Notes: a model not told the origin generated them from the letters alone. 64,000 bases of DNA from an uncultured Myxococcales bacterium (GCA_964545715.1 CAZJHX010000039.1:4204-68203), one strand, 5' to 3'. Counted from the stretch's first letter, positions 13,842 to 56,436 are shown. Program-made: numbers and translations.

Positions 13842-13944
13842 GAACTTCCTCCTCCACTTGTACTGTCAGCTTCCGCTAAAGAGAACAGACACTCGGTTTC
13901 TGGGAAGGTTCCGAACCCGTCAGAAAAAGTTATGCTCGACCGCG

Positions 13945-18322: not shown

Positions 18323-22225
<3,903 letters not shown>

Positions 22226-37557: not shown

Positions 37558-38787
<1,230 letters not shown>

Positions 38788-38803
38788 CTAGAAGGGCAAT
38801 CCT

Positions 38804-39568
38804 TCAAAGCACGTAGGGGATAACGGCGCGGCGCTCGGCAGGGTAGTCGTCGAACTTGTCGCGGTACCACTTGTGGTTGGTCAACGCGCGGGGGACCAGG
38901 TTGGCGAAGGTCCAAAACGCAAACGCCAGGCCGCCGATGGACCAGGTCGCGATCGCCCAGCCGGTCCACTCCACCACCTCACCGAAGTAGTTGGGGCACG
39001 AGACCCAGCGATAGAAGCCGCCCTTGGGGATCTTGTAGCCGGTCTCACCGGGCTTGCGCAGGTTGCGCAGGATGTCGTCGGCCTGCAGGTTGATGTACCA
39101 GCCGGTCAGGAAGACGGCAGCGCCGACCAGGAAGCGGGGATCGGCCAGCCACTCGGTGGGGTAGCCGCCGCTGAGCGTGAAGATCCAGCGGGCCTGCACG
39201 TAGCCGTTGCCGCAGTTGAAGATGACGCCCATCAGCATCACGAGCGCGGGCATGCGCTTGTCTTTGTCGCCTCGGATCCTGAACGGGAAGATCAGGGTGC
39301 GATTAACATAGTGCAGGTGCCACATGGCGGCGAAGACGAGCGACGCGGCGCTGGTCGGGTAGTCGCCGATCAGCCACAGCACGTCGAACACGATCAGCGT
39401 GGGGGCCTCCATGATGATCCAGCCCAGGCGGTTGGACACGGTGGGCCCCCAGCCGCCGCGCGCGTGCCGACCGTAAGGTGCCGAGATAAAGAGCAGGATC
39501 AGAAATACGCTGCCCGCGAGCGCGAACCAGCCGATGAGCAGCTGATCGTAGAAGGCTTGCTCAGCCAT
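38804..39568 (-). CDS. Steroid 5-alpha-reductase / DUF1295-family membrane protein
   Basis: Multi-TM protein. The C-terminal signature is GGFYRWVSCPNYFGEVVEWTGW. Confidence 0.65.
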   Translation of the reverse strand: MAEQAFYDQLLIGWFALAGSVFLILLFISAPYGRHARGGWGPTVSNRLGWIIMEAPTLIVFDVLWLIGDYPTSAASLVFAAMWHLHYVNRTLIFPFRIRGDKDKRMPALVMLMGVIFNCGNGYVQARWIFTLSGGYPTEWLADPRFLVGAAVFLTGWYINLQADDILRNLRKPGETGYKIPKGGFYRWVSCPNYFGEVVEWTGWAIATWSIGGLAFAFWTFANLVPRALTNHKWYRDKFDDYPAERRAVIPYVL

Positions 39569-40541
39569 TCAGCCTACCGGCCTCCTTGAACCAGGCGTAG
39601 GTGTCAGCGACGGTCTGCTGGACGGGGCGCGGGTCGAAGCCCAGCTCGTCTTTGGCTTTCTGGTTGCTGATCCGCGGGTTGCTGCGCAGCGCGTGCAGGG
39701 CGGCGCCGGTGAACTTGGCCTCGGTCCCGGTCATGCGGGCCCAGCCGACGGCGAACGGGGCGCTGGCACGCGCGAGCCACATCGGGGTGACGAATCGTGG
39801 CGCCTTCACGCCGGTGGCGGCCTCTGCGTATTGTCCGATCTCAACGGTCGAGCGCCACTCGCTGGCCAGGATATAGCGCTCGCCTTTGCGGCCGCGCGCC
39901 TCGGCGGCGAGGGCGCCGTCCACGACGTCCCGGACGTCGACCCAGGTGTATCCGCCGTCGACGAGGCCGGGCAGGCGCTTATTGTAGAGGTCGTGGAGGA
40001 CCTGCCCCATCCGCGACGGGGCGTAGTCGTGTGGGCCGATGACGCCGCACGGGTTGACGATTACGGCGTCCAGCCCGCGCTCCACGGCAGCCAGGATCTC
40101 GCGCTCGCCGGCGGCCTTGCTGCGGTCGTACGGCAGGTCGTCCTCGCCGGCGGGCTCGTTGGTCTCGTCGATCGGCTTCTCGCGCGGAAACTCATTGAGG
40201 GCGTGGGTCGAGCTGAAGTGCACCAGGCGCCGTACGCCGTTCTCCAAGCACGCCTGGGCGATATTTTTGGGCCCGCCGACGTTGACGGTCTGCAGCACAG
40301 GCTCGTTGCGACCGGAGATCGAGATGACCGCCGCCAGGTGAAAAACCACGTCCACGTCGCGGGTGGCGGCACGAACGGACTCCAAATCGGAGACATCACC
40401 GTCCACACGCTGAATGTCCAGGCCCTCCAGCGCGTCATTGTTGCCATGAATAAGGGCCCGGACGGGGCGACCACGGTCGACGAGGGTGCGCACGAGATTG
40501 CACCCGATATGTCCGTTTGCGCCGGTGACGAGGACGGTCAT
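39561..40541 (-). CDS. NAD-dependent epimerase/dehydratase family protein
   Basis: The ATG at 40541 gives MTVLVTGANGHIGCNLVRTL (GxxGxxG). The catalytic YDRSK motif (Y-x3-K) is present. The gene overlaps the downstream gene by 8 nt. Confidence 0.8.
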   Translation of the reverse strand: MTVLVTGANGHIGCNLVRTLVDRGRPVRALIHGNNDALEGLDIQRVDGDVSDLESVRAATRDVDVVFHLAAVISISGRNEPVLQTVNVGGPKNIAQACLENGVRRLVHFSSTHALNEFPREKPIDETNEPAGEDDLPYDRSKAAGEREILAAVERGLDAVIVNPCGVIGPHDYAPSRMGQVLHDLYNKRLPGLVDGGYTWVDVRDVVDGALAAEARGRKGERYILASEWRSTVEIGQYAEAATGVKAPRFVTPMWLARASAPFAVGWARMTGTEAKFTGAALHALRSNPRISNQKAKDELGFDPRPVQQTVADTYAWFKEAGRLNG

Positions 40542-40667
40542 CAGGCCGACCGTAGCCGCGCATGCGGGCGTTTGCAACCAGCGCGGTTTGACACGGCCTC
40601 CGGCGCGGGAGGTATGCTCCCGGCCCTGAGGCGTGTGGTGTTTAGAAGAGACAGGGGCGGTGATCTA

Positions 40668-43600
40668 ATGCGGTTTACTTTCTTTGCGTTGGCGACAGGT
40701 GTGGTGCTTGCGGGTTGTCCCAGTGACCCCGTTGACGGCGGGTCCCAGGGTTCGGGCGATCTGGCGGACGTCTTGTTTGACACGGCAGGCGACGCGCAGG
40801 GCGACGACGCGGGCGACACGACCGGCGACGACGACGCCGACACCACCGGCGCGGACGACACGACTGAGCCGACCGGCGACGACGACGCGGATACGGGCGA
40901 CGTGGAGCCGACCGAGCCGAGCTGCGGCGCGTACTGCAAGGTGCTGGCGCAGGCATGCACCGACGACAACGAGCAGTTCGCAGGCGAGGCGGAGTGCAAC
41001 ACCTACTGCCAGGACACCGCGCAGCTGCCGCTGGGTGCGGCCGCCGACACCGACGTGAACTCGGTGGGCTGCCGGATGTACCACGCCGGCGTGGCGTCGC
41101 AGCAGGAGCCCGAGGTGCACTGCCCGCACGCGGGACCGACCGGCGCCGATACCTGCGGCACCTGGTGCGAGAACTACTGCCACCTGGCCATGACCAACTG
41201 CACAGGCGCCAACGCGGTGTACGACACGCCGGCCGATTGCGAGGCGGCCTGTGCGGACCTGGTCGACGACGGGGAGGCCGGGGACACGGACGGCGACACC
41301 GTGCAGTGCCGCATCTATCACGCCGGCGTGGCCGGGACCAACGGCGACACCAGCGCTGAGATCCACTGCCCGCACGCCGGTCCGGACGGCGGCGGTGTGT
41401 GCGTGGACGCGATCGAGCCGGTGGACCCGACCTGTGAGGCCTACTGCGCGGCGATCACGGATGCCTGCACGGGCGACAACCTCCAGTACGCCGATGAAAC
41501 GGCCTGCCTGACCTACTGCGGCGCGTCGGCCCAGCTGCCGCTGGGTACGTCGGAGGACGTGGACGGCAACACGGTAGGCTGCCGCATCTATCACGCCGGT
41601 GTGGCGTCCACGAGCGACGAGAACGCCGCCATTCACTGCGTCCACGCGGGCCCGACCGGCGGCGACGTCTGCGGCGCGTGGTGCGACAACTACTGCCACC
41701 TGGCACAGACCAACTGCTCGGACGACAACGCGCTGTACAGCGACAGCGCGGCCTGTGACGCGGCGTGCGCGGACTTCCCGGCGACGGGCGCGGCCGGTGA
41801 CGTCGACGGTGACACCGTGCAGTGCAAGATCTACCACCTGGGTGTGGCCGGCAGCGACGGGGACGACAGCGCCGCGGTGCACTGCCCGCATGGCGGCATC
41901 GACGGCGGGGACGTCTGCGTGGCGCCCGTACTGCCGCCGACGTGCGCGGAGTACTGCGCGGCGGTCCAGGCAGCGTGCACCGACGACAACGCCCAGTATG
42001 CGTCGGAGGACGCATGCAACGCGTATTGCCAGGATTGGGCTCAGATACCGGCCGGCGCGCTGTCGGACACCGGCGGCAACACGATCGGCTGCCGCCTCTA
42101 TCACGCAGGTGTGGCCAGCGCGAGCGAGGACAACGCGGTCGTGCACTGCCCGCACGCGGGTGCGTCCGGTGGGGACGTGTGCGGCACCTGGTGTGAGAAC
42201 TACTGTCACCTGGCCGAGACCAACTGCACCGGTGACGATGCGCTGGACTTTGGTGACGGGGACTGCCCGGTCGCATGCACCGGCTACGGTGTGGACGCCG
42301 CTCCCGGTTCGGTCGACGGAGACTCGGTGCAGTGCCGCATCTATCACCTGGGTGTCGCCGGCAGCGACCCGCCCGACTCCGCCGGGGTCCACTGCCCGCA
42401 CGGCGGTCTGGACGGCGGCGGTGTCTGCGTGCCGCCACCCGAGCCGACGACATGCACGCCGATCGCCGCGCTGAGCTGCGGTGACAACCTGTCCGGGGTC
42501 TCCAACAACATGGACGGCAGCACCAACGTCATGGGCGACTACTTCTGCTCGCCGTTTGGCGACGACTACGGCACGGGCCCCGAGGCGACCTGGTCGTTTG
42601 AGGTGAGCGAGACCACGATCGTGGATATCAGCGACGGCGGCGCCGGCGAGGTCGACATCTTTTTGCTGGAGGACCACGGCAACGGGTGCGAGGCGAGCGA
42701 GGCCAGCTGTGTGTTGGGCGAGTTTGACGACCTGTCGTTTACGGCCGCTCCGGGCGCGACCTACTACGTGGTGGTGGACACCTGGGGCGGGGACGACGCG
42801 ACGTTTGATCTCTCGGTGACCTGCTGTACGCCGAGCTGCACGGACAAGGCGTGCGGCGACGACGGCTGCGGCAGCTCGTGCGGCGACTGCGGTGACGGTG
42901 AGGTGTGCAACGACGCGGGCGCGTGCGAGGAGGCGGTGCCGACGTGCGAGGACTACTGCGCGGCCGTGGCGGCGGCGTGCACGGACGACAACGCCCAATA
43001 CGCCAGCGTGGACGCGTGCTTGAACTACTGCGCAACGTGGGCGCAGCTTCCGGTCGGCTCGCTGGCGGACACGGACACAAACACGGTGGGGTGCCGCACG
43101 TACCACGCGGGCGTCGCGGCCCTCAGCGAAGACGACGCGGCGATCCACTGTCCGCACGCGGGCCCGTCGGGCGGCAACGTCTGCGGCTCCTGGTGCGACA
43201 ACTACTGCCACCTTTCGTCGGCCAACTGTACCGACGCCAACGCGCTGTATGCCGACGGCGATGCCTGCTCGGCCGCGTGCGAGGCCTTCCCGGCCGTCGG
43301 TGAGGTGGCGGACACCAGCGGCAACACGGTGCAGTGCCGCATCTATCACCTGGGCGTGGCGGGCTCGGCGCTGCCCGACTCGGCTGGCGTGCACTGTCCT
43401 CACGGGGCCGTGGACGGCGGCGGGGTCTGCGTAAAGGGCGGCTCGACGTGCGAGGACGCCATCACGGTGGGGGCCCTGCCCTACAGCGATGCGGGTGAGA
43501 CCGATACCGCCAGTGGCGACTACAGCTACAACGCAGGCGACTGCCCGGGCGAGAGCAGCGGGTGGGGCGCGGGCAGCAACGACGTGGTGTACGCGTTTAC

Positions 43601-46600
43601 GCCCGAGACCGGCGGCAATCACGACATCGAGCTGACGGGTGCGCCCGGCTTCGACAGCAACCTGTATGTGGTCACGGACTGTGGGGACATCGGGTCGACC
43701 TGTCTGGCGGCGGACGATGACATCGGCAGCAACATCACCGAGTCGATTACGCTGAACCTGACCGCGGGCGCGACCTACTACATCATCGTGGACGGCTGGA
43801 ACAACAGCGGCAACGTCTCGGGCGCGTACACGCTGACCGTGGACCGCTCGGCGCCGACCTGCGCCGAGTATTGCGCGCTGATCCAGTCCGCGTGCACGGG
43901 CGACAACGCGCAGTATGCGGACGAGGCCGTGTGCCTGACCTACTGCACCACGCAAGCGCAGCTTGTGGCGGGGGCGGCGGCGGACGTCGACGGCAACACG
44001 ATCGGGTGCCGCACCTATCACGCGGGGGTCGCCTCGCTGAGTGATGAGAACGCGGCAGTCCACTGCGCTCATGCCGGTCCGTCCGGCGGCGACGTCTGCG
44101 GGACCTGGTGCGACAACTACTGCTACCTGGCGGGCCTGAACTGCACCGGCGGCGATGCGCTGTTCGTCGACGACGGCGCGTGTGGCGCGGCGTGCGCGGA
44201 CTTTACGGACGACGCAGAGCCGGGCGCGGTCTCGGGCGACAGCGTGCAGTGCCGCATCTATCACCTGGGCGTGGCCGGCTTTGACGCCGACTCACCGGCC
44301 ATCCACTGCCCGCACGGCGGCACGGACGGCGGCGGTGTGTGCGTGGAGGCCCCGTCTGAAGGCGACACATGTGAGTCGGCTTTTGTGGTGGACGCGGCGC
44401 CCTTCTCGGCGACGGGCGATACGACCGGGGCCAACGCGGACTACGCATACGGCGACGGGGAGTGCCCCGGCGAGACCAGCGGCTGGGGCGCGGCTTCGGC
44501 CGATCAGGTCTACACGTTTACGCCCACGGCGTCGGCGCTGTACACGATCACCCTGGAGGCGGACGCCGACTTCGACAGCAACCTGTACGTCGTGAGCGAC
44601 TGCGGCGACATCGGCAGCAGCTGCCTGGCGGCGGACGACGCGATTGGGGGCGGCCAGACCGAGTCCGTCGCTGTGAACCTGACCGCCGGCACAACGTACT
44701 TCATCGTGGTAGACGGCTGGTCCAACGCCAGCGACATCGCGGGCGCGTACACGCTGTCGATCGACGGCGGAGCTCCGACCTGCGAGAGCTACTGTGCCGA
44801 TATCACCGCCGCGTGCACCGGCGACAACGCCCAATACGCGGACGCGGATGCGTGCCTGGCGTACTGCACCAACTCCCAGCTGCCGATCGGCGCCACGGGC
44901 GACGTGGACGGCAACTCGCTGGGCTGCAGGACCTACCACGCGGGCGTGGCGGCGCAGACCGACCCGGCCGTGCACTGTATCCACGCGGGTCCGTCGGGCG
45001 GCGACATCTGCGGAAGCTGGTGCGACAACTACTGCCACCTGGCGGCGAATAACTGCAGCGACGGTGACGCCCTGTTTGGGGACGACGCCGCCTGCGCGGA
45101 CGCGTGCGCGCTGTACCCGCTGAACGGTGACGCCGGCGACACGGTCGGCAACAGCGTGCAGTGCCGCATCTACCATCTGGGTGTGGCCGGGGACGACACC
45201 GGCGCGGGTCCGACCGTGCACTGCCCGCACGGCTCGATCGACGGCGGCGGCGTATGCAGCGGCCCCGGCGGGCAGACCTGCGAAGACGCGTTTGCTGCGA
45301 CCGGCGGGCTGCCGTACACGTCGGCCGGCACGACGGTGGGCAAATCCAATGACTATTCGATTCAGCCACAGTGGTGTGACCCGGATCTGCCGAGCACCTC
45401 GGGCGCGGGCTCGTCGGACGAGGCGTACGTGTTCACGGCCCCCGCGGACGGCACCTATCACGTGGATGTAGACGTCAGCTTTGACGCGCTGCTGTACGCG
45501 CTGGGCGACTGTGCGGACGCGGAGAACACCTGTCTGGGCGGGTCGGACGCGATCGGCGGCAGCGCAAACGAGCACCTGGAGCTGGACATGACGGCGGGCG
45601 AGTCGGTGTACCTGGTCGTGGACGGCTGGTCGTCCACGTCGAACATCAGCGGCGACTACAGCCTGACGATCAATGGGCTTGGCCACAACTGCGCGCTGCC
45701 GCATCCGATCTCGGAGCTGCCCTTCAGCCACACGTCGTCGACCAACGGCGTGGGCAACGACGCCAGCTACTCTGCGGGCGGCTGTCCGGGCGAGAGCTTT
45801 GGGTGGGGCGCGGGCTCCAGCGACGTGGTCTACGCGTTTACGCCGGGCGCCACGGGCGACTACAACGTGACGCTGACCGGCAACAACTTCGACAGCAACC
45901 TGTACGTGGTGACGGACTGCGGCGACATCGACGGCACCTGCGTGGGCGCCGACGACGAGGTGTGCGCCAACTGCACGGAGGAGCTGACGCTGACGTTGAA
46001 GGGCGGCACGACGTACTTCATCGTTGCGGACGGCTTCGGCAACAGCAACAACGTCAACGGGGCATACACGTTGACCGTGGACCTGGTCGGGCTGCAGGCG
46101 CCGACGTGCGAGACCTACTGCGCGGACGTGACGGCGGCCTGCACAGGCGACAACAGCCAGTTTGCCGACGAGGCCGCCTGCCTGGCCTACTGCGGCACCT
46201 GGGCGCAGCTGGACGCGGGTGAGCCGGGCGACACGGACGGCAACTCGATCGCCTGCCGCATCTACCACGCGGGGGTGGCGTCGGCCGATGAGGCGTCCGC
46301 TGCGATTCACTGCGATCACGCGGGTCCGTCCGGCGGAAACGTGTGCGGCAGCTGGTGCGAAAACTACTGCGATCTGGCGGCGACGAACTGCGCCGGAGAC
46401 AACGCGCTCTTCGCGGACGGCGACGCGTGTACGGCGGCGTGCGAGGCGTACGACGACCTGGGCGGGTCGGGCGACACCGACGGCGACACCGTGCAGTGTC
46501 GCATCTATCACCTGGGCGTGGCCGGCAGCGACGGCGACACATCGGCGGCGGTTCACTGTCCGCACGGCGGCATCGACGGCGGCGGCGTCTGCGTCTACCC

Positions 46601-49397
46601 CGGCGACAACTGCGACAACCCGTTCAGCGTCGGCGCGCTGCCGTACACAGCGACGGGCGACACCGGCCAGGCCTCACCGGCGGTGACCAACGAGTGCGTG
46701 GGCGCGACCGGCGACAACGGCGCCGGCTCAAACGACCACGTCTATGCGTTTACGCCGACGGCGGACGCGACGTACCTCATCACGCTGCAGGGGGCCTACG
46801 ACTCCCTGCTGTACGTGGCGAGCACCTGTGAGTTCTCGGGGGGCGCGTGCCTGGGCAGCGACGACAAGATCGGATCCAACCTGATCGAGGCGGTCACACT
46901 GCAGGCGACTGCGGGCACGACGTATTACATCGTGGTGGACGGCTGGAGCTCGTCGGGCAACGTCAGCGGCACGTACACGCTGACGGTGGAGGAGAAGTCG
47001 GATGTCGAGCTGACCTGCGAGTATTACTGCGGCCTGATGACGGCCAGTTGCACCGCAGACGACGCCCAGTATACGGACGAGGCAGCGTGCCTGGCCTATT
47101 GCGGAACCTGGGCCGCCTTCCCGGCGGGCACGGTGGGGGATACCGCTGTCAACACGCTGGCGTGTCGCATCACGGCGGCGACGGACAACGGCTCGGGCGC
47201 GGACTGTGCGGCGGCGGGTCCGTCGGGCGGCGACTCCTGCGGCACCTGGTGCGACAACTACTGCTATTTATCGGCGACAAACTGCTCGGGCGGCAACGCG
47301 CTGTACGCGTCCGATGCGGAGTGCCAGACGGCCTGCGACAACTTCTCAAACGGCGGGCTGCCGGGCGCGACCGACGGCGACTCCGTACAGTGTCGCATCT
47401 ACCACCTGGGTGTGGCCGGCAGCGACGGTGACACGTCGGCGGCTGTCCACTGCCCGCATGGCGCAACGGACGGCGGCGGCGTGTGTGTGGCGGCCCTTGG
47501 CGAGACCTGCGCCAACCCGTTCTTGATGGAGGGGGTGTCCTTCAGCGCGTCGGCCTCGACGGTCGGCGCCTCGGGCAACTACGGTTATGCGGCCGGCGAG
47601 TGCCCCGGCGAGAGCTCCGGCTGGGGCGCGGGATCCAGCGATCACGTGTACGCGGCGACGCCGTCGTTCGACGGGACGTGGCTGGTGACGCTGACCGGCG
47701 CAAGCTTCGACAGCAACCTGTACGTGGTCACCGACTGCGACGATATCGGGAACTCCTGCGTGGCGGCCAACGACGAGGTCTGCAGCAGCTGCACTGAGAG
47801 CGTCACGGTCGACGCGACAGCGGGCACCACGTATTACGTCATCGTCGACGGCTGGAACAACAGCAGCAACACGGCAGGCGACTACACGCTGACGGTCGAC
47901 CTCGTGGGCAACACCTGCGAGACCCCGAACGTGGTCTCCGCCCTGCCGTTCAACGCGACGGGCGACACGAACAACGCGACGGGCGACGTCAACGCGGACG
48001 GGTCTTGCGCCTCGGTGGGCGCGGGCAGCAACGACAACGTGTACTCGCTGACGGCTACGGCGGACGGGCCGGTGACGGTCACACTGGACGCGGCATACGA
48101 CTCGGCGCTGTATGTGTTGACGGACTGCGCGGATGCGGCGTCGTGTACGGCGTCGGACGACGTCATCGGAGTGGGCGTGGAGACGCTGACGTTCGATGCG
48201 ACGGCCGGCAGCACCTACTTTGTGGTCGTGGACGGCTGGAGCAACGCGAACAACGTCGCCGGCTCCTACAGCATCGAGATCACGCAAGACACGTTCAAGG
48301 GCACCGAGTACACCGTGGACATCAAGGACTTCGCGTTTGCCCCGGCGGATCTCACAATCGTGGTGGGCGACAAGGTCACCTGGGTGAACCTGGATGCGAC
48401 CGCGCACACGGCCACATCCAGCGATGACCCGCCGGTGTTCGACAGCGGCACGTTGGCCGAGAACGACACCTACTCGTTTGTGTTCGAGGAGGCCGGATCG
48501 TTTGCGTACTTCTGCGAATTCCACGCGGGTATGACCGGGACGATCACGGTGGAGGCGCCGGTGGTGCCGGGCCAGACGTGCGACGCGCCGCTGGTGGTCG
48601 ACGCCGTACCGTACAGCGCAACCGGCGACACGACCGACGCCAGCGCCGACTACAGCTACCCGGCGGGCGCGTGCCCGGGCGAGGGCGGCAGCTGGGGTGC
48701 GGCGTCCAGCGACAACGCCTATGCGTTTACGCCAACCGTGACCGGCTCGTACACCATCTCGCTGACCAACGCCGACGGCTTCGACAGCAACCTGTATGTG
48801 GTCACGGACTGCTCGGACATCGGGGCCAGCTGTCTGGGCGCCGACGACCAAATCTGCAGCGACTGCACCGAGACCGTGGTGCTGGACCTGACGGCGGGCG
48901 AGACTTACTTCATCATCGTGGACGGCTACAGCAATAACAGCAACGTGGCGGGCGCCTACACGCTGACGGTCGACCTGACCGGCGACACCTGCGCGCTGCC
49001 GTTTGCGGTGGATGCGCTGCCCTTTGACGCGACGGGCGACACGACCGGCTTCAGCAACGCGCTGGCCAGTCCAGGATCGTGCCCGGGCGACGGCGGCTGG
49101 GGCCAGGCGGCGCCGGACCATGTGTACGCGTACACGCCGGATGCGGACGGCACGATCGACGTCAGCGTCACCGGGACGGACTTCGACACGACGCTGTATG
49201 TCTTCTCGGACTGTGACGACGTGGAGAACACGTGTCTGGGCGCCGACGACGTCATCGGCAGCAACACAACCGAGAGCGTGTCGGTGGCCGTGACCGCAGG
49301 AACCACCTACTTCATCGTGGTGGACGGCTACAACAACGACGCCACGTTCGGTGTGGAAGAGGGCGCCTACGCGCTGTCGGTCACCGCAGCGCCGTAA
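40668..49397 (+). CDS. Giant (2909 aa) lipoprotein built from about 8 Cys/His-rich tandem modules, about 10 PPC-like beta-sandwich domains and one cupredoxin domain
   Basis: The signal is MRFTFFALATGVVLAGC, followed by an Asp/Thr acidic linker. The module consensus is CxxYC-x6-CTGDNAQY-x7-C-x2-YC...DTDGNTVGCRIYHAGVA...HCPHAGPSGGDVCGxWCDNYCHL...NC...C..AC...GDTVQCRIYHLGVAG...HCPHGGxDGGGVCV. PPC-like units read LPY..GDT....DY.....CPGE..GWG...D.VYAFTP...FDSNLYVVTDC.DI..C..ADD.....TE...L.LTAG.TYYI.VDGW.....G.YTLTVD. The cupredoxin domain lies at about 48290-48565. Confidence 0.75.
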   Translation: MRFTFFALATGVVLAGCPSDPVDGGSQGSGDLADVLFDTAGDAQGDDAGDTTGDDDADTTGADDTTEPTGDDDADTGDVEPTEPSCGAYCKVLAQACTDDNEQFAGEAECNTYCQDTAQLPLGAAADTDVNSVGCRMYHAGVASQQEPEVHCPHAGPTGADTCGTWCENYCHLAMTNCTGANAVYDTPADCEAACADLVDDGEAGDTDGDTVQCRIYHAGVAGTNGDTSAEIHCPHAGPDGGGVCVDAIEPVDPTCEAYCAAITDACTGDNLQYADETACLTYCGASAQLPLGTSEDVDGNTVGCRIYHAGVASTSDENAAIHCVHAGPTGGDVCGAWCDNYCHLAQTNCSDDNALYSDSAACDAACADFPATGAAGDVDGDTVQCKIYHLGVAGSDGDDSAAVHCPHGGIDGGDVCVAPVLPPTCAEYCAAVQAACTDDNAQYASEDACNAYCQDWAQIPAGALSDTGGNTIGCRLYHAGVASASEDNAVVHCPHAGASGGDVCGTWCENYCHLAETNCTGDDALDFGDGDCPVACTGYGVDAAPGSVDGDSVQCRIYHLGVAGSDPPDSAGVHCPHGGLDGGGVCVPPPEPTTCTPIAALSCGDNLSGVSNNMDGSTNVMGDYFCSPFGDDYGTGPEATWSFEVSETTIVDISDGGAGEVDIFLLEDHGNGCEASEASCVLGEFDDLSFTAAPGATYYVVVDTWGGDDATFDLSVTCCTPSCTDKACGDDGCGSSCGDCGDGEVCNDAGACEEAVPTCEDYCAAVAAACTDDNAQYASVDACLNYCATWAQLPVGSLADTDTNTVGCRTYHAGVAALSEDDAAIHCPHAGPSGGNVCGSWCDNYCHLSSANCTDANALYADGDACSAACEAFPAVGEVADTSGNTVQCRIYHLGVAGSALPDSAGVHCPHGAVDGGGVCVKGGSTCEDAITVGALPYSDAGETDTASGDYSYNAGDCPGESSGWGAGSNDVVYAFTPETGGNHDIELTGAPGFDSNLYVVTDCGDIGSTCLAADDDIGSNITESITLNLTAGATYYIIVDGWNNSGNVSGAYTLTVDRSAPTCAEYCALIQSACTGDNAQYADEAVCLTYCTTQAQLVAGAAADVDGNTIGCRTYHAGVASLSDENAAVHCAHAGPSGGDVCGTWCDNYCYLAGLNCTGGDALFVDDGACGAACADFTDDAEPGAVSGDSVQCRIYHLGVAGFDADSPAIHCPHGGTDGGGVCVEAPSEGDTCESAFVVDAAPFSATGDTTGANADYAYGDGECPGETSGWGAASADQVYTFTPTASALYTITLEADADFDSNLYVVSDCGDIGSSCLAADDAIGGGQTESVAVNLTAGTTYFIVVDGWSNASDIAGAYTLSIDGGAPTCESYCADITAACTGDNAQYADADACLAYCTNSQLPIGATGDVDGNSLGCRTYHAGVAAQTDPAVHCIHAGPSGGDICGSWCDNYCHLAANNCSDGDALFGDDAACADACALYPLNGDAGDTVGNSVQCRIYHLGVAGDDTGAGPTVHCPHGSIDGGGVCSGPGGQTCEDAFAATGGLPYTSAGTTVGKSNDYSIQPQWCDPDLPSTSGAGSSDEAYVFTAPADGTYHVDVDVSFDALLYALGDCADAENTCLGGSDAIGGSANEHLELDMTAGESVYLVVDGWSSTSNISGDYSLTINGLGHNCALPHPISELPFSHTSSTNGVGNDASYSAGGCPGESFGWGAGSSDVVYAFTPGATGDYNVTLTGNNFDSNLYVVTDCGDIDGTCVGADDEVCANCTEELTLTLKGGTTYFIVADGFGNSNNVNGAYTLTVDLVGLQAPTCETYCADVTAACTGDNSQFADEAACLAYCGTWAQLDAGEPGDTDGNSIACRIYHAGVASADEASAAIHCDHAGPSGGNVCGSWCENYCDLAATNCAGDNALFADGDACTAACEAYDDLGGSGDTDGDTVQCRIYHLGVAGSDGDTSAAVHCPHGGIDGGGVCVYPGDNCDNPFSVGALPYTATGDTGQASPAVTNECVGATGDNGAGSNDHVYAFTPTADATYLITLQGAYDSLLYVASTCEFSGGACLGSDDKIGSNLIEAVTLQATAGTTYYIVVDGWSSSGNVSGTYTLTVEEKSDVELTCEYYCGLMTASCTADDAQYTDEAACLAYCGTWAAFPAGTVGDTAVNTLACRITAATDNGSGADCAAAGPSGGDSCGTWCDNYCYLSATNCSGGNALYASDAECQTACDNFSNGGLPGATDGDSVQCRIYHLGVAGSDGDTSAAVHCPHGATDGGGVCVAALGETCANPFLMEGVSFSASASTVGASGNYGYAAGECPGESSGWGAGSSDHVYAATPSFDGTWLVTLTGASFDSNLYVVTDCDDIGNSCVAANDEVCSSCTESVTVDATAGTTYYVIVDGWNNSSNTAGDYTLTVDLVGNTCETPNVVSALPFNATGDTNNATGDVNADGSCASVGAGSNDNVYSLTATADGPVTVTLDAAYDSALYVLTDCADAASCTASDDVIGVGVETLTFDATAGSTYFVVVDGWSNANNVAGSYSIEITQDTFKGTEYTVDIKDFAFAPADLTIVVGDKVTWVNLDATAHTATSSDDPPVFDSGTLAENDTYSFVFEEAGSFAYFCEFHAGMTGTITVEAPVVPGQTCDAPLVVDAVPYSATGDTTDASADYSYPAGACPGEGGSWGAASSDNAYAFTPTVTGSYTISLTNADGFDSNLYVVTDCSDIGASCLGADDQICSDCTETVVLDLTAGETYFIIVDGYSNNSNVAGAYTLTVDLTGDTCALPFAVDALPFDATGDTTGFSNALASPGSCPGDGGWGQAAPDHVYAYTPDADGTIDVSVTGTDFDTTLYVFSDCDDVENTCLGADDVIGSNTTESVSVAVTAGTTYFIVVDGYNNDATFGVEEGAYALSVTAAP

Positions 49398-52300
49398 CGT
49401 AAAGGGCCGCCGGTCGATCCGATCGCGGCGCTGCTCCGTACCATCGGGGTGGTCGAGTTGACTTTGGGACGCGTTCCAAGGTGTAGTTCACCACCTTAAA
49501 CGGCACTACAGCGAACGCGTGGGGGCATATGCGGCGCATCTTTCTTTGCCTACCTCTGGCAGCGGCCCTGATTCTGGGCTGCCCCGGTGAGACAACGACC
49601 ACCGGCGACTCTACAACCGACACAACCGATACGGACACGACGGACACCGGAGGCGAAGACGCCGGACCGACCGGCACCGATGACGACGCCACGACGAGCA
49701 CGACGGGCGACGACGACGCGACCACGACGACGGACGACACGACGGACACGGGCGATGTGCCCGATCCGGTGGAGCCGACCTGCGCGGAGTACTGCCAGGT
49801 CATCATGGAGAGCTGCACCGGCGACAACGCGCAGTACGCCAGCGAGGCCGAGTGCACGACGGTGTGCAAGGACATCGCGCAGTGGGACGTGGGCGAGCTG
49901 GAGGACACGGACGTCAACACGGTTGGCTGCCGTCTGTACCACGCGGGTGTCGCCGCGACCGAGGAGCCGGAGGTGCACTGCTGGCACGCCGGCCCGACCG
50001 GCGGCGACTTCTGCGGAACCTGGTGCGACAACTACTGCCACCTGTCCGAGCTGATCTGCACCGGGCCTGAGGCGGAGACGCACCCGACGGCTGAGCAGTG
50101 CCAGGAGGCCTGTCTGGACTTCCGCAGCGACGGCGAGATCAACGACACCGGCGGCAACAGCGTTCAGTGCCGCCTGTACCACCTGAGCGTGGCCGGGACG
50201 AACCCGCCGAGCAGCGCGGAGCTGCATTGCCCGCACGCCGGCATCGACGGCGACGGCACCTGCGTGGACGAGCCCAAGCCGGACCCCAACTGTGAAGACT
50301 ATTGCCAGCTGATTCAGGTCGCGTGCACCGGCGACAACGCGCAGTACGCGGACGAGGCGGCGTGCATCGCGTACTGCAAGGTCGCGGGGCAGCTACCGAT
50401 CGGGACGGCGGACGACATCAAGGGCAACACGCTGGGATGTCGCCAGTACCACGCGGGCGTGGCTGTTCAGCAGCAGCCGGAGATCCACTGCGACCACGCC
50501 GGCCCGTCCGGCGGCGACGTGTGCGGCTCCTGGTGTGACAACTACTGCCATCTGTCCGGTGTGAACTGCTCGGGCGACGACGCGATCTTTGCGGATGACG
50601 CGGAGTGCGCCGCGGCGTGCGGGGACTATGCCGCCGACGGCCTGACCGGCAACGTGGACGGCGACACGGTTCAGTGCCGCATCTACCACCTGGGCGTGGC
50701 CGGCTCCGACAAGGACAACGGCACCCCGGCGATCCACTGCCCGCACGGCGGCGTGGACGGCGGCGAGGTGTGTGTGGACGAGGAGCCGCCGCCGGACCCG
50801 ACCTGCGAGGCGTATTGCGCGGCGGTCACGGCGAATTGCACGGACGGAAACGCCCAGTACGGCAGCGAGACCCAGTGCAACAACTACTGCGAGACCTGGG
50901 GCAAGCTCCCCCTGGGCGAGGGCACCGACACCAGCGGCAACACGGTTGGCTGTCGCATCTACCACGCCGGTGTGGCCGGTGGCGGCGAGGCGGAAGCGGC
51001 GATTCACTGCGCGCATGCCGGTCCCTCCGGCGGCGACGTGTGCGGTACGTACTGCGAGAACTACTGCCACCTGTCGGCGACCAACTGCACCGAGGACAAC
51101 GCGCTGTATGAGGACGACGACGGCTGCGCGACCGCGTGCGCGGACTTTGCCGCGGGCCCCGACCCGCTGGCGACCGACGGCGACTCTGTCCAGTGCCGCA
51201 TCTATCACCTGGGTGTGGCGGGCAGCGATCCGCCGGACTCCGCCGGAACACACTGCCCGCACGGCGCCATCGACGGCGGCGACGTGTGCGTCGGACCGGT
51301 CGCCGAGACCTGTGAGCCGGTGGGCGCGCTGAGCTGTGGTGATACGATCAACGGCGCCAGCAACGAGACGGGCACGCAGCTGATGAGCAGCTACCAATGC
51401 CAGGTCTTCGAGAGCGACGACTACGGCCCGGGGCTGGAGGTGGCGTACACGTTCACCACCGAGACCGACCAGCTGGTCACCGTGTCCGACACGTCCAGCG
51501 CCATGGATGTCATCGTGCTCAAGGACGAGGGCTTCGGCTGCGTCTCCACGGGTACAAGCTGCCTGGACAGCGGCACGACCAGCGCGTCGTTCGCGGCCAA
51601 GGCCGGCGTCGAGTACTTCATCGTGCTGGACGCGTATGACGGTGACACGGACACGTTCGACATCACGGTCGACTGCTGCGCGCCCACGTGCGAGGGCAAG
51701 ACCTGTGGCGACGACGGCTGTGGCGGCACCTGCGGCACGTGCGCCGAGACCGAGCTGTGCACCGACGCTGGCGTGTGCGAGGCGATCCCCGAGCCGGAGG
51801 CCGACACGTGCGACGCGGCCAACGCCGTGGGTGCGCTGCCGTTCAGCGCGGAGGCGACGACCGAGTACAACTCTGACAACTATGGCTACTCGACGGGCGC
51901 GTGCCCGGGCGAGGAGGGTGGCTGGGGCGACTCGGCGCCGGACCAGGCGTGGTCGTTTACCCCGGACGAGGGCGGCCTGTACTCGGTGGCCCTGGAGTCC
52001 AACTTTGACTCCAACCTGTACGTCGTGACCGACTGCGCCGATGTCGACGGCTCGTGCGTCGCCGGTTTCGAGGAGGTCGGCCCCAACGAGTCGCTGACCA
52101 CCTACCTGAGCGCCGGGACCACCTACTACATCATCGTGGACGGCTGGGGCTTTGACGAGGGCGGCGCGTACACGCTGAACGTGGACCTGGTTACGCCGGG
52201 CGCCACGCCGCAGTGCCAGTACTACTGCGACCTGATCCAGGCCGCGTGCACCGGCGCCAACGCCCAGTACGACAGCGTTGACAGCTGCGTCAGCTATTGC

Positions 52301-55000
52301 ACGACCTACGGTGCGCTGCCGTTGGGCGCCAACGAAGACGTGGACGGCAACACCGTGGGCTGCCGCACCTATCACGCGGGCGTCGCTGCGACGGTGGCTC
52401 CCGACGTGCACTGCGCCCATGCCGGGCCGTCCGGCGGCGACCTGTGCGGCACCTGGTGCGAGAACTACTGCCACCTGTCTGCGCAAAACTGCACGGGCGA
52501 CAACGAGCTGTTCGCGGACGACGGCGCGTGCGCGGCTGCGTGTGACGAGTACGCGACCACGGGCCTGCCCGGTGACACCGGCGGCGCCACGGTCCAGTGC
52601 AAGATCTACCACCTGGGCGTGGCGGGCAACGCGGATGCCGGCGGCGGCGACGTGCACTGCTCGCACGGCGGCGTGGACGGCGATGAGGTGTGCGTGGCGG
52701 CGACGGGCGGCAACGGCGACAGCTGCGACTCGCCCTTCATTATCGGCGCCCTGCCCTACTCCAAGACTGCGGACACGACCAGCGCCAGCAGCGAGGTGCA
52801 GAGCGAGTGCAAGAAGCTCTTCAACGGGTCGGCCTCCAACGAGCATGTGTACAAGCTGACGGCCGCTGAGGACGGCGACTACGTCTTTACGCTGGTCGCG
52901 GAGCACGACTCTCTGCTGTACGTGGTGACCGACTGCTCCGGCGCGGGCACCACGTGCCTGGCCGCGGACGACGAGTTCGGCAAGAACCTGACCGAGACCG
53001 TGACGGTGACGTTGAAGGCCGACGAGGAGGTCTTCGTGGTGGTGGACGGCTACTCGGCCGCGGAGAACCAGGCCGGCGAGTACACGCTGACGGTGGAGGT
53101 GCTGCCGCCGTTCGGCGTTACGTGCGAGTACTACTGCGCGTCGATCACGTCGACGTGTACCGGGGACAACGCCCAATACGCGGACGAGCAGGCGTGTCTG
53201 GACTACTGCAAGGTCGCCGGCGCCTTCCCCGAGGGCACCATCGACGACGTGGACGGCAACAGCCTGGGCTGCCGCGTCTATCACGCGGGTGTGGCCGGCC
53301 AGGTCTCGCCCGAGGTTCACTGCCCGCACGCCGGTCCGTCCGGCGCCGACACCTGCGGCTCTTGGTGCGACAACTACTGCCACCTGGCGCAGCAGAACTG
53401 CACGGGCGGCAACGAGCTTTACGCCAACGAGGCCGAGTGCCTGTCCGCGTGCGACACATTCGACACGGGCGGTGAGCCCGGCGACACCAGTGGCGGCACC
53501 GCGCAGTGCAAGATCTATCACCTGGGCGTGGCCGGCTCGGACGGCGACACCAGCGCCGCGATCCACTGTCCGCACGGCGGCGCTGACGGCGGCGGCATCT
53601 GTGTGGCGGCGCCGGGCGACAGCTGCTCCAACGCCATCGCCATCGAGAGCGTGCCGTTCAACACGGTCGGCGATACCGGCAGCGGCACCCCGCAAGTGTC
53701 CGTCGGCTGCGCCGAGGCCAGCGCCAAGGGTGCGGGCTCCAGCGACCTGGTCTACTCCTTCGCCCCGCCGGCCGAGGGCGAGTACGTGATCACGCTGAAC
53801 GCGGACCACGACTCTCTGCTGTACGTGACCACCGACTGCTCAGGCGACGAGGAGAGCTGCGTGGCCACCGACGACGTGCTGGGCGGCGGCAAAACCGAGA
53901 CGCTGACGCTGACGCTGAGCGCCGACACCACGTACTACATCGTGGTGGACGGCTGGGCGGACTTCATGGACGTCTCCGGCGCCTTCACGCTGTCCGTGAC
54001 CGCGGTGGGCGGCGCCGAGCTGACGTGCGAGTACTACTGCGCGTCGATCATGGCCGCTTGCACCGGGGATGACGCGCAGTACGCCGATGCGGACGCGTGC
54101 AACAGCTACTGCAACAAGTACGGCGCCTTCCCCGAGGGGACGCTGGACGACGTGGACGGCAACACGCTGGGCTGCCGGATCTACCACGCCGGCGTGGCCG
54201 GGACTGTGGCCCCGGACGTGCACTGCGCACACGCCGGTCCGTCCGGCGGCGACATCTGCGGAACGTGGTGTGAGAACTACTGCGACCTGGCGGAGAAGAA
54301 CTGCACCGGCGGCGACGCGCTGTTTGCCGACAACGGCTCCTGCATGAGCACGTGCAACGGCTACTCCGACGACGGCGCCCCCGGCGACACGGGCGGTGAC
54401 ACCGTGCAGTGCCGCATCTATCACCTGGGTGTGGCCGGCAACGGCGACGCGGGCGGCGCAACGACTCACTGCCCGCACGGCGACGCGGACGGCGGCGGTG
54501 TGTGTGTCGACGACACCACGCCCACCCTGGACGTGAGCGGCTGGACGGTGATCCAGAACGGCGGCGAGAAGACCTTCGAGTTCCCGGCCGGCACCGTCGT
54601 GAAGGAGGGGGACTACATCGTGATCGGGCGAAACGCATCGCAGGAGGACTTCACCCTGTACTGGGGCGTGAACTTCTCCGGCGGCGTGCATTACTTCGAC
54701 GCCAACAACCAGTTCCCGATAGTCAACGGCGACGAGTCCTTCGATTTGCTGGACGCGACCGACACGCTGGTGGACGGTCCCTCGGCAAACCTGAAGTCGG
54801 GCTTCAAGCTGCAGCGCAAGCAGCCGGTCGGCGCCGCCAGCGACGCCGGCTCATGGGACCAGCAGAGCGCGGCCACCGGCGTGGGTCCGGCGCCAAACCC
54901 GGGTACCGGCCAGACGCCGGGCGTGGACAACGGCCTCTACCTCAGCGAGCTGAGCGACGCCAACGGGTCGGGCAACTTCATCTACGAGTTTGTCGAGATC
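40900..55000 (+). repeat. About 14 kb of imperfect tandem repetition with a period of roughly 450 bp, underlying the two giant genes
   Basis: Near-identical nucleotide blocks recur throughout, for example tgccgcatctatcacctgggtgtggccggcagcgacgg, cactgcccgcacggcgg and tggtgcgacaactactgccacctg. Confidence 0.85.
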
Positions 55001-55336
55001 TACGTCTCGGGCCTCAACGGCGACGTGCCGATCGTCGAGCCGGAGCCCGGCCCGGTCGAGGTCGAGGTAAAGAACTTTGCGTTCAGCCCGGCCGACATCA
55101 CGGTCTCGGTGGGCACGACGGTGACCTGGACGTTTTTGGACGGCTCCAGTCACACCGTGACCAGCACCGACAACAAGACGTCCAACCAGACGACCAACGA
55201 TCCGCTGGACAGCCCGTTCTTGAAGAGCAGCGACGCGCCCGACAACACGTACAGCTACACCTTCACCGAGGCAGGCCTGTTCACGTATCGGTGCATCCCG
55301 CACGCCAGCATGAAGGGCAGCGTCAACGTCGAGTAG
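49529..55336 (+). CDS. Giant (1935 aa) paralogous lipoprotein with about 7 Cys/His-rich modules, PPC-like domains, a lamin-tail domain (LTD) and a C-terminal cupredoxin domain
   Basis: The signal is MRRIFLCLPLAAALILGCPGETTTTG, followed by a Thr/Asp linker. The module consensus is the same as in the upstream giant. The LTD-like stretch is at about 54530-54850 (WTVIQNGGEKTFEFPAGTVVKEGDYIVIG). The cupredoxin domain is at about 55050-55333 with ligands H (SSHTVTS), C-x2-H (YRCIPHASM) and M. Confidence 0.75.
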   Translation: MRRIFLCLPLAAALILGCPGETTTTGDSTTDTTDTDTTDTGGEDAGPTGTDDDATTSTTGDDDATTTTDDTTDTGDVPDPVEPTCAEYCQVIMESCTGDNAQYASEAECTTVCKDIAQWDVGELEDTDVNTVGCRLYHAGVAATEEPEVHCWHAGPTGGDFCGTWCDNYCHLSELICTGPEAETHPTAEQCQEACLDFRSDGEINDTGGNSVQCRLYHLSVAGTNPPSSAELHCPHAGIDGDGTCVDEPKPDPNCEDYCQLIQVACTGDNAQYADEAACIAYCKVAGQLPIGTADDIKGNTLGCRQYHAGVAVQQQPEIHCDHAGPSGGDVCGSWCDNYCHLSGVNCSGDDAIFADDAECAAACGDYAADGLTGNVDGDTVQCRIYHLGVAGSDKDNGTPAIHCPHGGVDGGEVCVDEEPPPDPTCEAYCAAVTANCTDGNAQYGSETQCNNYCETWGKLPLGEGTDTSGNTVGCRIYHAGVAGGGEAEAAIHCAHAGPSGGDVCGTYCENYCHLSATNCTEDNALYEDDDGCATACADFAAGPDPLATDGDSVQCRIYHLGVAGSDPPDSAGTHCPHGAIDGGDVCVGPVAETCEPVGALSCGDTINGASNETGTQLMSSYQCQVFESDDYGPGLEVAYTFTTETDQLVTVSDTSSAMDVIVLKDEGFGCVSTGTSCLDSGTTSASFAAKAGVEYFIVLDAYDGDTDTFDITVDCCAPTCEGKTCGDDGCGGTCGTCAETELCTDAGVCEAIPEPEADTCDAANAVGALPFSAEATTEYNSDNYGYSTGACPGEEGGWGDSAPDQAWSFTPDEGGLYSVALESNFDSNLYVVTDCADVDGSCVAGFEEVGPNESLTTYLSAGTTYYIIVDGWGFDEGGAYTLNVDLVTPGATPQCQYYCDLIQAACTGANAQYDSVDSCVSYCTTYGALPLGANEDVDGNTVGCRTYHAGVAATVAPDVHCAHAGPSGGDLCGTWCENYCHLSAQNCTGDNELFADDGACAAACDEYATTGLPGDTGGATVQCKIYHLGVAGNADAGGGDVHCSHGGVDGDEVCVAATGGNGDSCDSPFIIGALPYSKTADTTSASSEVQSECKKLFNGSASNEHVYKLTAAEDGDYVFTLVAEHDSLLYVVTDCSGAGTTCLAADDEFGKNLTETVTVTLKADEEVFVVVDGYSAAENQAGEYTLTVEVLPPFGVTCEYYCASITSTCTGDNAQYADEQACLDYCKVAGAFPEGTIDDVDGNSLGCRVYHAGVAGQVSPEVHCPHAGPSGADTCGSWCDNYCHLAQQNCTGGNELYANEAECLSACDTFDTGGEPGDTSGGTAQCKIYHLGVAGSDGDTSAAIHCPHGGADGGGICVAAPGDSCSNAIAIESVPFNTVGDTGSGTPQVSVGCAEASAKGAGSSDLVYSFAPPAEGEYVITLNADHDSLLYVTTDCSGDEESCVATDDVLGGGKTETLTLTLSADTTYYIVVDGWADFMDVSGAFTLSVTAVGGAELTCEYYCASIMAACTGDDAQYADADACNSYCNKYGAFPEGTLDDVDGNTLGCRIYHAGVAGTVAPDVHCAHAGPSGGDICGTWCENYCDLAEKNCTGGDALFADNGSCMSTCNGYSDDGAPGDTGGDTVQCRIYHLGVAGNGDAGGATTHCPHGDADGGGVCVDDTTPTLDVSGWTVIQNGGEKTFEFPAGTVVKEGDYIVIGRNASQEDFTLYWGVNFSGGVHYFDANNQFPIVNGDESFDLLDATDTLVDGPSANLKSGFKLQRKQPVGAASDAGSWDQQSAATGVGPAPNPGTGQTPGVDNGLYLSELSDANGSGNFIYEFVEIYVSGLNGDVPIVEPEPGPVEVEVKNFAFSPADITVSVGTTVTWTFLDGSSHTVTSTDNKTSNQTTNDPLDSPFLKSSDAPDNTYSYTFTEAGLFTYRCIPHASMKGSVNVE

Positions 55337-55339
55337 GCG

Positions 55340-56436
55340 TTGGCTGTCTAGGACGCCATCGTCATCGGCACGGGCGGCGCAGGAAGCGCGGCCCTGACCA
55401 CCTCGCGCGACGCGGCCTGCGCACGCTGGGCCTGGATAGATTCCAGCCGGGCCACGCCCGCGGCAGCTCGCATGGCGACACCCGCGTCATTCGCCAGTGC
55501 TACTTCGAGCACCCGGACTACATCCCGCTACTGCTGCGCGCCTACGAGCTGTGGGCGGACCTGGAGCAGCGGACCGCCCGGCGGCTGTATCAACGCACCG
55601 GCGTCCTGGAGATCGGCCCAACCGACGGCATGGTGCTCCCGGGCGTGATGGCGGCGGCGGCCCGGCACAACCTGTCCATCGACTCGTTGGAGCCGGCGAA
55701 TATACGCCGCCGCTTCCCGGGGTTTGACGTACCGGAAGGCATGGCGGGCGTCTTCGAGCACGACGCCGGCATTCTGTATGTGGAGGACTGCGTGCTGGCT
55801 CACACGCGGGCGGCGCAGGCTGCCGGCGCTCAGTTGGAGATCGGGCCGGCCGTACTCGGCTTCGAGCGCACGTCGAGCGGCTTTCGGGTCGCGACCGAGT
55901 CGACGACGCACGAGTGCACGCAGCTGGTCGTGACCCCGGGCGCGTGGGCCGCTGATCTGCTGGGCATGCTGGGTCTGCGGCTGGAGGTCAGGCGCAAGGT
56001 GCTGCTGTGGTACGGCGCTGAGCGGTACGAGACGTCGCCGGTCTACCTGTACGAGCTGCCAAGCGGCATCTTCTACGGCTTTCCACAGGTTGACGGCGCC
56101 GTGAAAGTGGCGGAACACTCGGGCGGTGGACCGGCGGGCGATCCGCTGAATCTCGACCGCGAGCTGCATCGGGCCGATGTCGACCCTGTCGAGCGTTTTC
56201 TGTCCGACCACCTGCCGGGCGCGGACGCCACGGACCGTCAACGTCATGCGGTCTGCATGTACACGATGACCCCGGACGACCACTTCGTCATCGACCACGA
56301 CGACGGCCTGGCCTACGCCTGCGGTCTGAGCGGCCACGGCTTCAAGTTTGCGTCGGTCCTGGGAGAGATCCTGGCCGATCTGGCGACGACCGGCGCCACG
56401 TCGCTGCCGATCGGGATGTTCTCCAGCGCTCGCTGA
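55340..56436 (+). pseudogene. solA: N-methyl-L-tryptophan oxidase / sarcosine oxidase family (SolA-like) FAD oxidoreductase, disrupted by a premature TAG at codon 4 and a 1-nt frameshift
   Basis: TTG at 55340 gives M-A-V-TAG(55349)-DAIVIGTGGAGSAAL, which aligns to E. coli SolA MKYDLIIIGSGSVGAAAG. After about 55396 the homology continues in the -1 frame (ARRGLRTLGLDRFQPGHARGSSHGDTRVIRQCY...). The C-terminus GLSGHGFKFASVLGEI is near-identical to E. coli SolA. Confidence 0.55.

Follow-up and report, generated by a model that had tools for sequence, protein, structure and literature searches.

Two tandem giant lipoproteins of a Myxococcales bacterium are strings of BfoA_C modules with a candidate Tyr/His3 metal site

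This study concerns two adjacent genes in a 64,000-nucleotide stretch of DNA, hereafter the window, from an uncultured Myxococcales bacterium (GCA_964545715.1 CAZJHX010000039.1:4204-68203), which encode the giant proteins p1 and p2. Both were found to be strings of a cysteine-rich module belonging to the family BfoA_C (PF28386), and all but one of the module halves carry one Tyr and three His residues that are kept or lost as a block. We tentatively propose, with a probability of roughly 40%, that p1 and p2 are surface-tethered strings of Tyr/His3 sites which bind a transition metal, probably copper, and which are loosely coupled to a blue-copper domain, serving either metal capture and buffering or redox chemistry. 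The BfoA_C domain is listed in the newer Pfam, and comparable giants are known; the leads presented here are the four-residue site and the recurrent fusions to electron carriers.

The open reading frame of p1 occupies positions 40668..49397 (+; 2909 amino acids, aa) and that of p2 positions 49529..55336 (+; 1935 aa), in a window with a GC content of approximately 67%. Each protein begins with a hydrophobic lipoprotein signal peptide, namely MRFTFFALATGVVLAG with the lipobox ...VVLAG-C17 in p1 and MRRIFLCLPLAAALILG with the lipobox ...LILG-C18 in p2, both of which, read by eye, fit the pattern [LVI][ASTG][GA]C. In both, the signal peptide is followed by a tether rich in Asp, Thr and Gly, about 60 residues long. 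The preliminary description of this DNA, which was made from the sequence alone, had proposed two tandem giant lipoproteins that are paralogues. The reading frames and the lipobox signal peptides confirm the former, and an identity of 46-57% between p1 and p2 along long collinear stretches confirms the latter. Both proteins are strongly acidic (424 Asp and Glu vs 28 Lys and Arg in p1; 304 vs 47 in p2), which would favour the binding of cations. An exact match to p1 is present in a public protein collection. The p1-p2 gene pair recurs in the same arrangement in three further metagenome assemblies, so the arrangement is not an assembly artefact. A promoter and terminator scan, which was otherwise uninformative, found no terminator-like site between p1 and p2 on the + strand. 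It is well supported that p1 and p2 are paralogous, membrane-anchored lipoproteins from a high-GC myxobacterium, built as strings of BfoA_C modules; they are predicted to be sited, probably, in the outer membrane or on the cell surface.

A hidden Markov model (HMM) of the half-repeat, built from the window, matched p1 16 times and p2 12 times (domain E-values between 1e-20 and 1e-34); a six-frame translation of the whole window gave no match outside these two proteins. The 28 halves, each of about 80 aa, pair head-to-tail into eight modules in p1 and six in p2, each 157-162 aa long. The p1 modules are 53-69% identical among themselves and to those of p2. The repeat and its build from two halves had been correctly recognised beforehand, whereas the figures given at the time, namely about 15 copies of about 150 aa made of 70-aa halves, have to be replaced by 14 copies, about 160 aa and about 80 aa. 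The pattern described as Cys6/His2 did not hold either, as each half contains eight Cys and three His residues together with a Tyr and an Arg. The eight invariant Cys are spaced C-x3-C-x6-C-x12-C-x3-C-x~18-20-C-x~16-19-C-x10-C. Besides them, each half has an Arg that follows the sixth Cys, a Tyr adjoining a His, and the motif H-C-x-H (C-R-x-Y-H ... H-C-x-H). The Tyr and the three His are retained in 27 of the 28 halves. The sole exception, p1 aa 2117-2194 (47007-47240, CRITAATDNGSGADCAAAG), lacks the Tyr and each of the three His, keeps all eight Cys and adjoins an intact half within p1 module 8, so that it offers a natural control without the site.

With regard to the domains between the modules, an HMM built within the window links 14 beta domains of about 134 aa that resemble PPC, 10 in p1 and four in p2. 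Pfam PPC scores 69.8 bits in p1 (cut-off 25.9), for two stretches only, and 17.3 bits, below the cut-off, in p2; no match to a PDB sequence was found for a typical copy. The preliminary description had the modules alternating with PPC-like beta-sandwich domains, and domains of this appearance do lie between modules. A small Cys-rich knot, CGxDGCGxxCGxC, follows the first PPC copy of each protein. A lamin-tail domain (LTD) in p2 is a weak match (27.0 bits against a cut-off of 34.3), and its precomputed match is likewise marked as weak; relatives have clear LTDs at the equivalent position. It had also been stated that the module is neither a haem CxxCH motif, nor the Myxococcus CDDGNxC repeat, nor the CxDNDCDG metal-binding motif seen elsewhere in the window. 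In agreement, a scan of both whole proteins found no CxxCH, and hence not the hallmark of a c-type cytochrome, and neither the Myxococcales Cys-rich repeat nor the MopE-type metal motif gave an NCBIfam or Pfam match within p1 or p2.

A ligand site is indicated by the co-variation of residues among relatives. Unique halves were aligned to the half-repeat HMM, first 890 from 300 relatives and then 1155 from 383. Across these sets the eight Cys are 97-100% conserved, and where they are lost they are lost in pairs: positions 1 and 29 are jointly missing in 30 cases, positions 5 and 25 in one. As the losses are pairwise, we infer a twin-Cx3C hairpin with an outer (1-29) and an inner (5-25) disulfide; the sequences thus indicate that the Cys act as structural disulfide partners. 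This arrangement recalls the twin-Cx3C or CHCH hairpins of the small Tim proteins and Cox17, which likewise consist of two antiparallel Cx3C helices. The likeness is an analogy: there is no sequence or fold match, the BfoA_C half has four more Cys, and it is predicted to be extracellular. Arg49 is 94-96% conserved whether the His are present or not, and for this reason it also looks structural.

In contrast to the Cys, Tyr51, His52, His66 and His69 form a separate block: 794 of the 1155 halves have all four residues and 146 have none of them. The three His are jointly absent from 138 halves, against about 11 expected if they varied independently. The Tyr is 93% conserved where the three His are present, and no residue is preferred at its position where they are absent. 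The block is nearly all-or-none per protein. Mixed neighbours, with one intact and one site-less half, are nevertheless common, p1 module 8 being one case. A binuclear, type-3-like site shared by the two halves of a module was considered and is disfavoured by these mixed neighbours, which make one site per half more likely. The pattern points to the Tyr and the three His as one separable ligand site on a disulfide-stapled scaffold. The preliminary description had offered metal coordination or disulfide-knotted units as alternatives for the Cys and His; the data suggest a division of labour instead, with disulfide-like Cys and a separate Tyr/His3 block.

AlphaFold2 predicts one module with high confidence (42 sequences; predicted local distance difference test, pLDDT, 97.4; predicted template modelling score, pTM, 0.89) as an all-helical structure of eight helices, four per half. 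No fold relative of the model was found in the PDB, haem proteins included. Three tandem modules were predicted well locally (pLDDT 85.5) with a pTM of 0.45, and in this model they resemble beads on a string more than a stiff rod. The idea of a fibre, which had been raised previously, is not supported by this prediction.

The module itself had been described as matching no domain that could be named. This is correct for a Pfam-A copy predating PF28386, for NCBIfam (June 2026) and for PDB sequences, in which neither the module nor its profile found a match at permissive thresholds; it is not correct for the newer Pfam, which lists PF28386 as BfoA_C. A homologue search with a p1 module returned 37 relatives, 36 of which carry a precomputed PF28386 annotation, as do the relatives in two other listings of 120 each. 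The same annotation is found on p2, where it is not marked as weak (E <= 1e-5), and the assignment of p1 rests on the 53-69% identity of its modules to those of p2. The module is consequently a member of a catalogued family, and since multi-module giants are known elsewhere, p1 and p2 cannot be regarded as proteins of a kind not yet described. The precomputed annotation thus yielded a named family, whereas a described function for it was not found: a literature search for BfoA or PF28386 returned nothing relevant, and the function of the name-giving BfoA was not traced. A guess that bfoA refers to a gene of the bifonsecin cluster of Aspergillus brasiliensis led to nothing relevant in the literature either, and the same holds for DUF4331 and Dictyostelium. 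All sources, including NCBI, name the relatives only as hypothetical proteins.

The family is large. When 1.84 billion representative proteins were searched with a profile, at least 3430 clusters (50% identity) reached E <= 1e-3, and 986 reached E <= 1e-30. In species-representative genomes, 310 loci were found, nearly all in Myxococcota (Polyangia, Bradymonadia, Sandaracinaceae, Nannocystaceae), and cultured carriers include Sorangium (So ce strains) and Minicystis rosea. A typical member is a lipoprotein of about 205 aa with a single module, whereas p1 and p2 string together eight and six modules with PPC-like domains and a cupredoxin. Other giants were found in metagenomes, including proteins of 3796 aa with 16 matched stretches (P0038) and of 2432 aa with nine (P0039), as well as P0044 and P0047. 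These resemble p1 and p2 in their repeated modules, their PPC and LTD spacers and their small C-terminal redox domain; they differ in that most end in a cytochrome-like CxxCH domain rather than a cupredoxin, and in that the genes around them show no conservation. BfoA_C genes with 40-56% identity to the query module also occur on contigs of metagenome-assembled genomes labelled as Klebsiella pneumoniae, Enterobacteriaceae, Woesearchaeota and Methanosarcinales (L009, L012, L059, L015, L017). These genes are Myxococcota-like and the contigs are probably mis-binned.

A separate branch of the family is of eukaryotic type. Its proteins combine a signal peptide with four halves, carry N-glycosylation motifs and a Ser-rich stalk, and have a hydrophobic tail at the C-terminus resembling that of glycosylphosphatidylinositol (GPI)-anchored proteins. 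They come from metatranscriptome contigs roughly 1.2 kb in length, of which the only one that was read, L086 (1-1256), ends in poly(A); further members of this type are P0024, P0122, P0196, P0197 and P0201. No reference sequence from a cultured eukaryote was seen among the family matches.

Each protein contains one cupredoxin domain, recognised by Pfam Copper-bind at 40.2 bits in p1 and 49.2 bits in p2 (cut-off 21.2). The set of type-1 copper ligands is intact in both (H...C-x2-H-x2-M), with AHT...FCEFHAGM in p1 and SHT...RCIPHASM in p2. In the PDB, the domains are closest to amicyanin (E ~5e-10) and to the fused cupredoxin of a copper nitrite reductase. Amicyanin and plastocyanin, with which these domains share the Copper-bind match and the His/Cys/His/Met ligands, are free periplasmic carriers, whereas here the domain is fused to a lipoprotein of 200-290 kDa. 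Both proteins had been said to end in cupredoxins; this is true of p2, in which the domain is terminal, and not of p1, in which two PPC-like domains follow it.

Small redox domains also follow the modules in other family members. In 12 distinct proteins among the 383 relatives, the C-terminus is formed by a conserved domain of about 90 aa in which CxxCH occurs once (TYxxDVQPIxxxxCxxCH...GSMP), and which is often preceded by an LTD. Pfam gives it weakly as Cytochrome_CBB3 (E from about 0.004 to 4e-5), and it may represent a distinct cytochrome-like family; its carriers include P0044, P0047, P0054, P0065, P0073, P0083 and P0145. A cupredoxin-type C-x2-H-x2-4-M motif was found in nine of the 383 relatives, p1 and p2 included, and a DOMON domain and a bacterial globin were found in single relatives each. 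That two interchangeable small electron carriers follow the modules in this family suggests a redox role. We also asked whether modules with intact sites are enriched in relatives with redox domains, and they are not.

The proposed explanation can be set out as follows. Each half-module would be a four-helix unit held by four disulfides, with its first two helices forming the twin-Cx3C hairpin, and this rigid scaffold would seat one site of one Tyr and three His (C-R-x-Y-H ... H-C-x-H). Tyr with three His is the composition of the copper site in lysyl oxidase-like enzymes, and three His and a Tyr are present at CuB of cytochrome oxidase. Copper was chosen as the metal partly on the basis of these known Tyr/His3 sites; by this analogy, the site would bind a transition-metal ion, most likely copper. 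The 15 sites of p1 and the 12 of p2, 27 in total, would be displayed outside the cell on flexible stalks resembling beads on a string. There, at the surface, p1 and p2 could act by buffering or capturing metal, or by redox chemistry in which electrons pass via the attached blue-copper domain.

Several observations weigh against this proposal. Two relatives that end in the cytochrome-like domain (P0065 and P0073) lack any Tyr/His3 site, and three others (P0041, P0051 and P0061) lack it in part, which implies that a redox domain does not need the site and that the module can be a bare scaffold. There is only one cupredoxin for every 12 to 16 putative sites; this, together with the lack of a fixed geometry between modules (pTM 0.45), disfavours an ordered electron wire. 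A simple helical-wheel estimate failed to clearly place H57 on the face of H71 and H74. The commonest partner domains are of spacer or adhesion types (LTD in 10 of 40 relatives, PPC and Dicty_CTDC). Finally, no conserved partner genes for metal homeostasis or redox chemistry were found next to family members, whether giants or single-module proteins, at 78 genome loci and on several metagenome contigs.

The last two of these observations are also what would be expected of the main rival, a structural stalk or adhesin, which we regard as possible although on the unlikely side. According to this explanation, the modules are disulfide-stapled rigid spacers comparable to EGF or CTDC repeats, which extend the PPC-like and terminal domains for adhesion, matrix building or prey contact, and Tyr/His3 is a structural, pH-sensing or protein-contact feature. 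Modules without Tyr/His3 indeed retain every Cys, the Arg and the signature of the fold, and are found in long arrays all the same, the eukaryotic members resemble GPI-anchored surface glycoproteins, and the beads-on-a-string appearance of the tandem prediction would suit a stalk. Nevertheless, a four-residue block that is all-or-none (794 vs 146 halves) and is present in 27 of the 28 halves of the window is more in keeping with a ligand site than with packing. That cupredoxin, cytochrome-c-like, DOMON and globin domains are repeatedly fused to the modules, and that the cupredoxins of both p1 and p2 have full sets of copper ligands, also speaks against mere spacers.

A haem or an organic cofactor in place of the metal ion appears improbable. 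In such a model, His/His or His/Tyr would ligate a b-type haem, or a different anionic redox cofactor, in every half, and the arrays, together with the cytochrome c or cupredoxin at their end, would act as a redox relay outside the cell, loosely like the haem relay of fungal CFEM proteins. The conserved Tyr and His on neighbouring helices of a helical eight-Cys scaffold and the haem and copper redox modules among the partner domains (cytochrome-c-like, globin, DOMON and cupredoxin) would be compatible with such a relay. The haem-binding, GPI-anchored CFEM surface proteins of fungi do share eight Cys per unit, a helical build and surface anchoring with the module family, including its GPI-type eukaryotic members. 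However, the module has no Pfam match to CFEM, even at E <= 10, or to any other haem family, its Cys spacing differs, and its candidate ligands are Tyr/His3 in place of the Asp of CFEM. In addition, no fold match to haem proteins was obtained, the Arg is kept where the His are lost and hence does not belong to the site, for instance as a propionate anchor, and three His plus a Tyr exceed what haem ligation needs. Storage of Cu(I) in the manner of the four-helix bundles Csp1 and Csp3, with the 16 Cys of each module acting as free thiolates that bind multinuclear clusters, is very hard to sustain: the module shares with them Cys-rich helical bundles with Cx3C motifs and a tie to copper biology, through the attached cupredoxins and perhaps the MopE-type metal-motif protein elsewhere in the window (18323..22225), but its Cys are lost pairwise (positions 1 and 29 together 30 times), all eight positions are nearly fully conserved, as fits disulfides, the lipid-anchored export of p1 and p2 and the GPI-type secretion of the eukaryotic relatives both lead to oxidising compartments, and there is no Pfam match to the Csp family (DUF326).

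With regard to the genomic context, the sole recurrent arrangement in the family is a split-DUF4331 operon, which does not occur in this window. This three-gene unit was seen at about 12 Myxococcota loci (L024 7010-10267, L007, L020, L028, L033, L045-L047, L049, L050, L054 and L056). Its first gene encodes the N-terminal half of DUF4331 (profile positions 1-234), its second a lipoprotein in which one BfoA_C module is fused to the C-terminal half (profile positions 248-421), and its third a tetratricopeptide-repeat (TPR) lipoprotein. DUF4331 is thus divided over genes 1 and 2, with the module inserted.

In the window, a gene for a flavin adenine dinucleotide (FAD)-dependent oxidoreductase (55291-56436, +; Pfam DAO, E 3.5e-40) shares 46 nucleotides with the 3' end of p2, in another frame, and this overlap suggests that the two genes are co-transcribed or translationally coupled. 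It is followed by genes for a lectin-like protein (56459-57781) and for a 333-aa protein without a family match (57791-58792). Upstream of p1 and divergent from it (37558-40577, -) lie genes of the 3-beta-hydroxysteroid dehydrogenase/epimerase type (39561-40577), of the steroid 5-alpha-reductase type (38804-39568) and of the TraB/GumN family (37558-38787). Sterol-type enzymes are unusual among bacteria and are known from some myxobacteria. Two further genes encode large Cys-rich proteins of secreted type: one of 1300 aa (18323-22225, -) with repeated matches to the MopE-type 'putative metal-binding motif' (E 5.6e-33), and one of 748 aa (6262-8508, -) with Dicty_CTDC repeats and a Golvesin_C domain. 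Subunit I of a cytochrome bd oxidase is encoded at 13630-15237 (+; Pfam E 1.3e-150) and has no evident link to p1 or p2.

Table 1. Domains and other features of p1 and p2, with positions counted from the first nucleotide of the window.
Feature	Position	Strand	Basis
p1: 8 BfoA_C modules, 10 PPC-like domains, 1 cupredoxin	40668..49397	+	Open reading frame, translation
p1 signal peptide with lipobox VLAG-C17	40668..40718	+	Read from sequence
p1 acidic Asp/Thr/Gly-rich tether	40719..40913	+	Read from sequence
p1 module 1, two half-repeats	40914..41408	+	Half-repeat HMM
p1 module 2; one modelled with AlphaFold2, pLDDT 97.4	41424..41924	+	Half-repeat HMM
p1 module 3	41934..42434	+	Half-repeat HMM
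p1 PPC domain (Pfam PPC match), then CGxDGCGxxCGxC knot to ~42938	42447..42821	+	Pfam, in-window HMM
p1 module 4	42936..43436	+	Half-repeat HMM
p1 PPC-like domain 2	43440..43844	+	In-window HMM
p1 module 5	43851..44348	+	Half-repeat HMM
p1 PPC-like domain 3	44361..44765	+	In-window HMM
p1 module 6	44772..45263	+	Half-repeat HMM
p1 PPC-like domains 4 and 5 (45270-45674, 45681-46082)	45270..46082	+	In-window HMM
p1 module 7	46098..46598	+	Half-repeat HMM
p1 PPC-like domain 6	46602..46991	+	In-window HMM
p1 module 8; first half (aa 2117-2194) site-less	47007..47492	+	Half-repeat HMM
p1 PPC-like domains 7 and 8 (47499-47900, 47907-48284)	47499..48284	+	In-window HMM
p1 cupredoxin, aa 2544-2629, H...C-x2-H-x2-M	48297..48554	+	Pfam Copper-bind, ligands from sequence
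p1 PPC-like domains 9 and 10 (48570-48974, 48981-49385)	48570..49385	+	In-window HMM
p2: 6 BfoA_C modules, 4 PPC-like domains, weak LTD, C-terminal cupredoxin	49529..55336	+	Open reading frame; precomputed Pfam PF28386, LTD (weak), Copper-bind
p2 signal peptide with lipobox LILG-C18	49529..49582	+	Read from sequence
p2 module 1	49772..50269	+	Half-repeat HMM
p2 module 2	50282..50779	+	Half-repeat HMM
p2 module 3	50795..51295	+	Half-repeat HMM
p2 PPC-like domain 1, then Cys-rich knot	51278..51673	+	In-window HMM
p2 PPC-like domain 2	51800..52186	+	In-window HMM
p2 module 4	52205..52699	+	Half-repeat HMM
p2 PPC-like domain 3	52715..53098	+	In-window HMM
p2 module 5	53114..53608	+	Half-repeat HMM
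p2 PPC-like domain 4	53615..54001	+	In-window HMM
p2 module 6	54017..54511	+	Half-repeat HMM
p2 lamin-tail-like domain, weak, below Pfam cut-off	54524..54775	+	Pfam
p2 C-terminal amicyanin-like cupredoxin, H...C-x2-H-x2-M	55058..55333	+	Pfam Copper-bind, PDB match, ligands from sequence

BfoA_C is thus a large family, almost confined to Myxococcota and with an offshoot in eukaryotic soil transcripts, which has no solved structure and no fold relative in the PDB, and whose NCBI members are all hypothetical proteins. A wider reading, which we consider unlikely, is that BfoA_C domains with Tyr/His3 constitute extracellular metal centres of an uncharacterised class, probably with mononuclear copper, which Myxococcota and some soil protists string together in numbers of up to dozens and terminate with a blue-copper or c-type cytochrome domain, as a surface redox or metal device for oxidising or capturing metals or for predation. 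The co-variation names concrete residues for mutation, namely those of the inferred disulfide hairpin and of the four-residue site that is lost as a block. If the modules were mere scaffolding, p1 and p2 would be routine repeat proteins of a catalogued family. If, on the other hand, Tyr/His3 is a metal centre, BfoA_C would be a new extracellular metal-binding fold, and it would point to surface redox chemistry or metal handling in predatory soil and marine bacteria.

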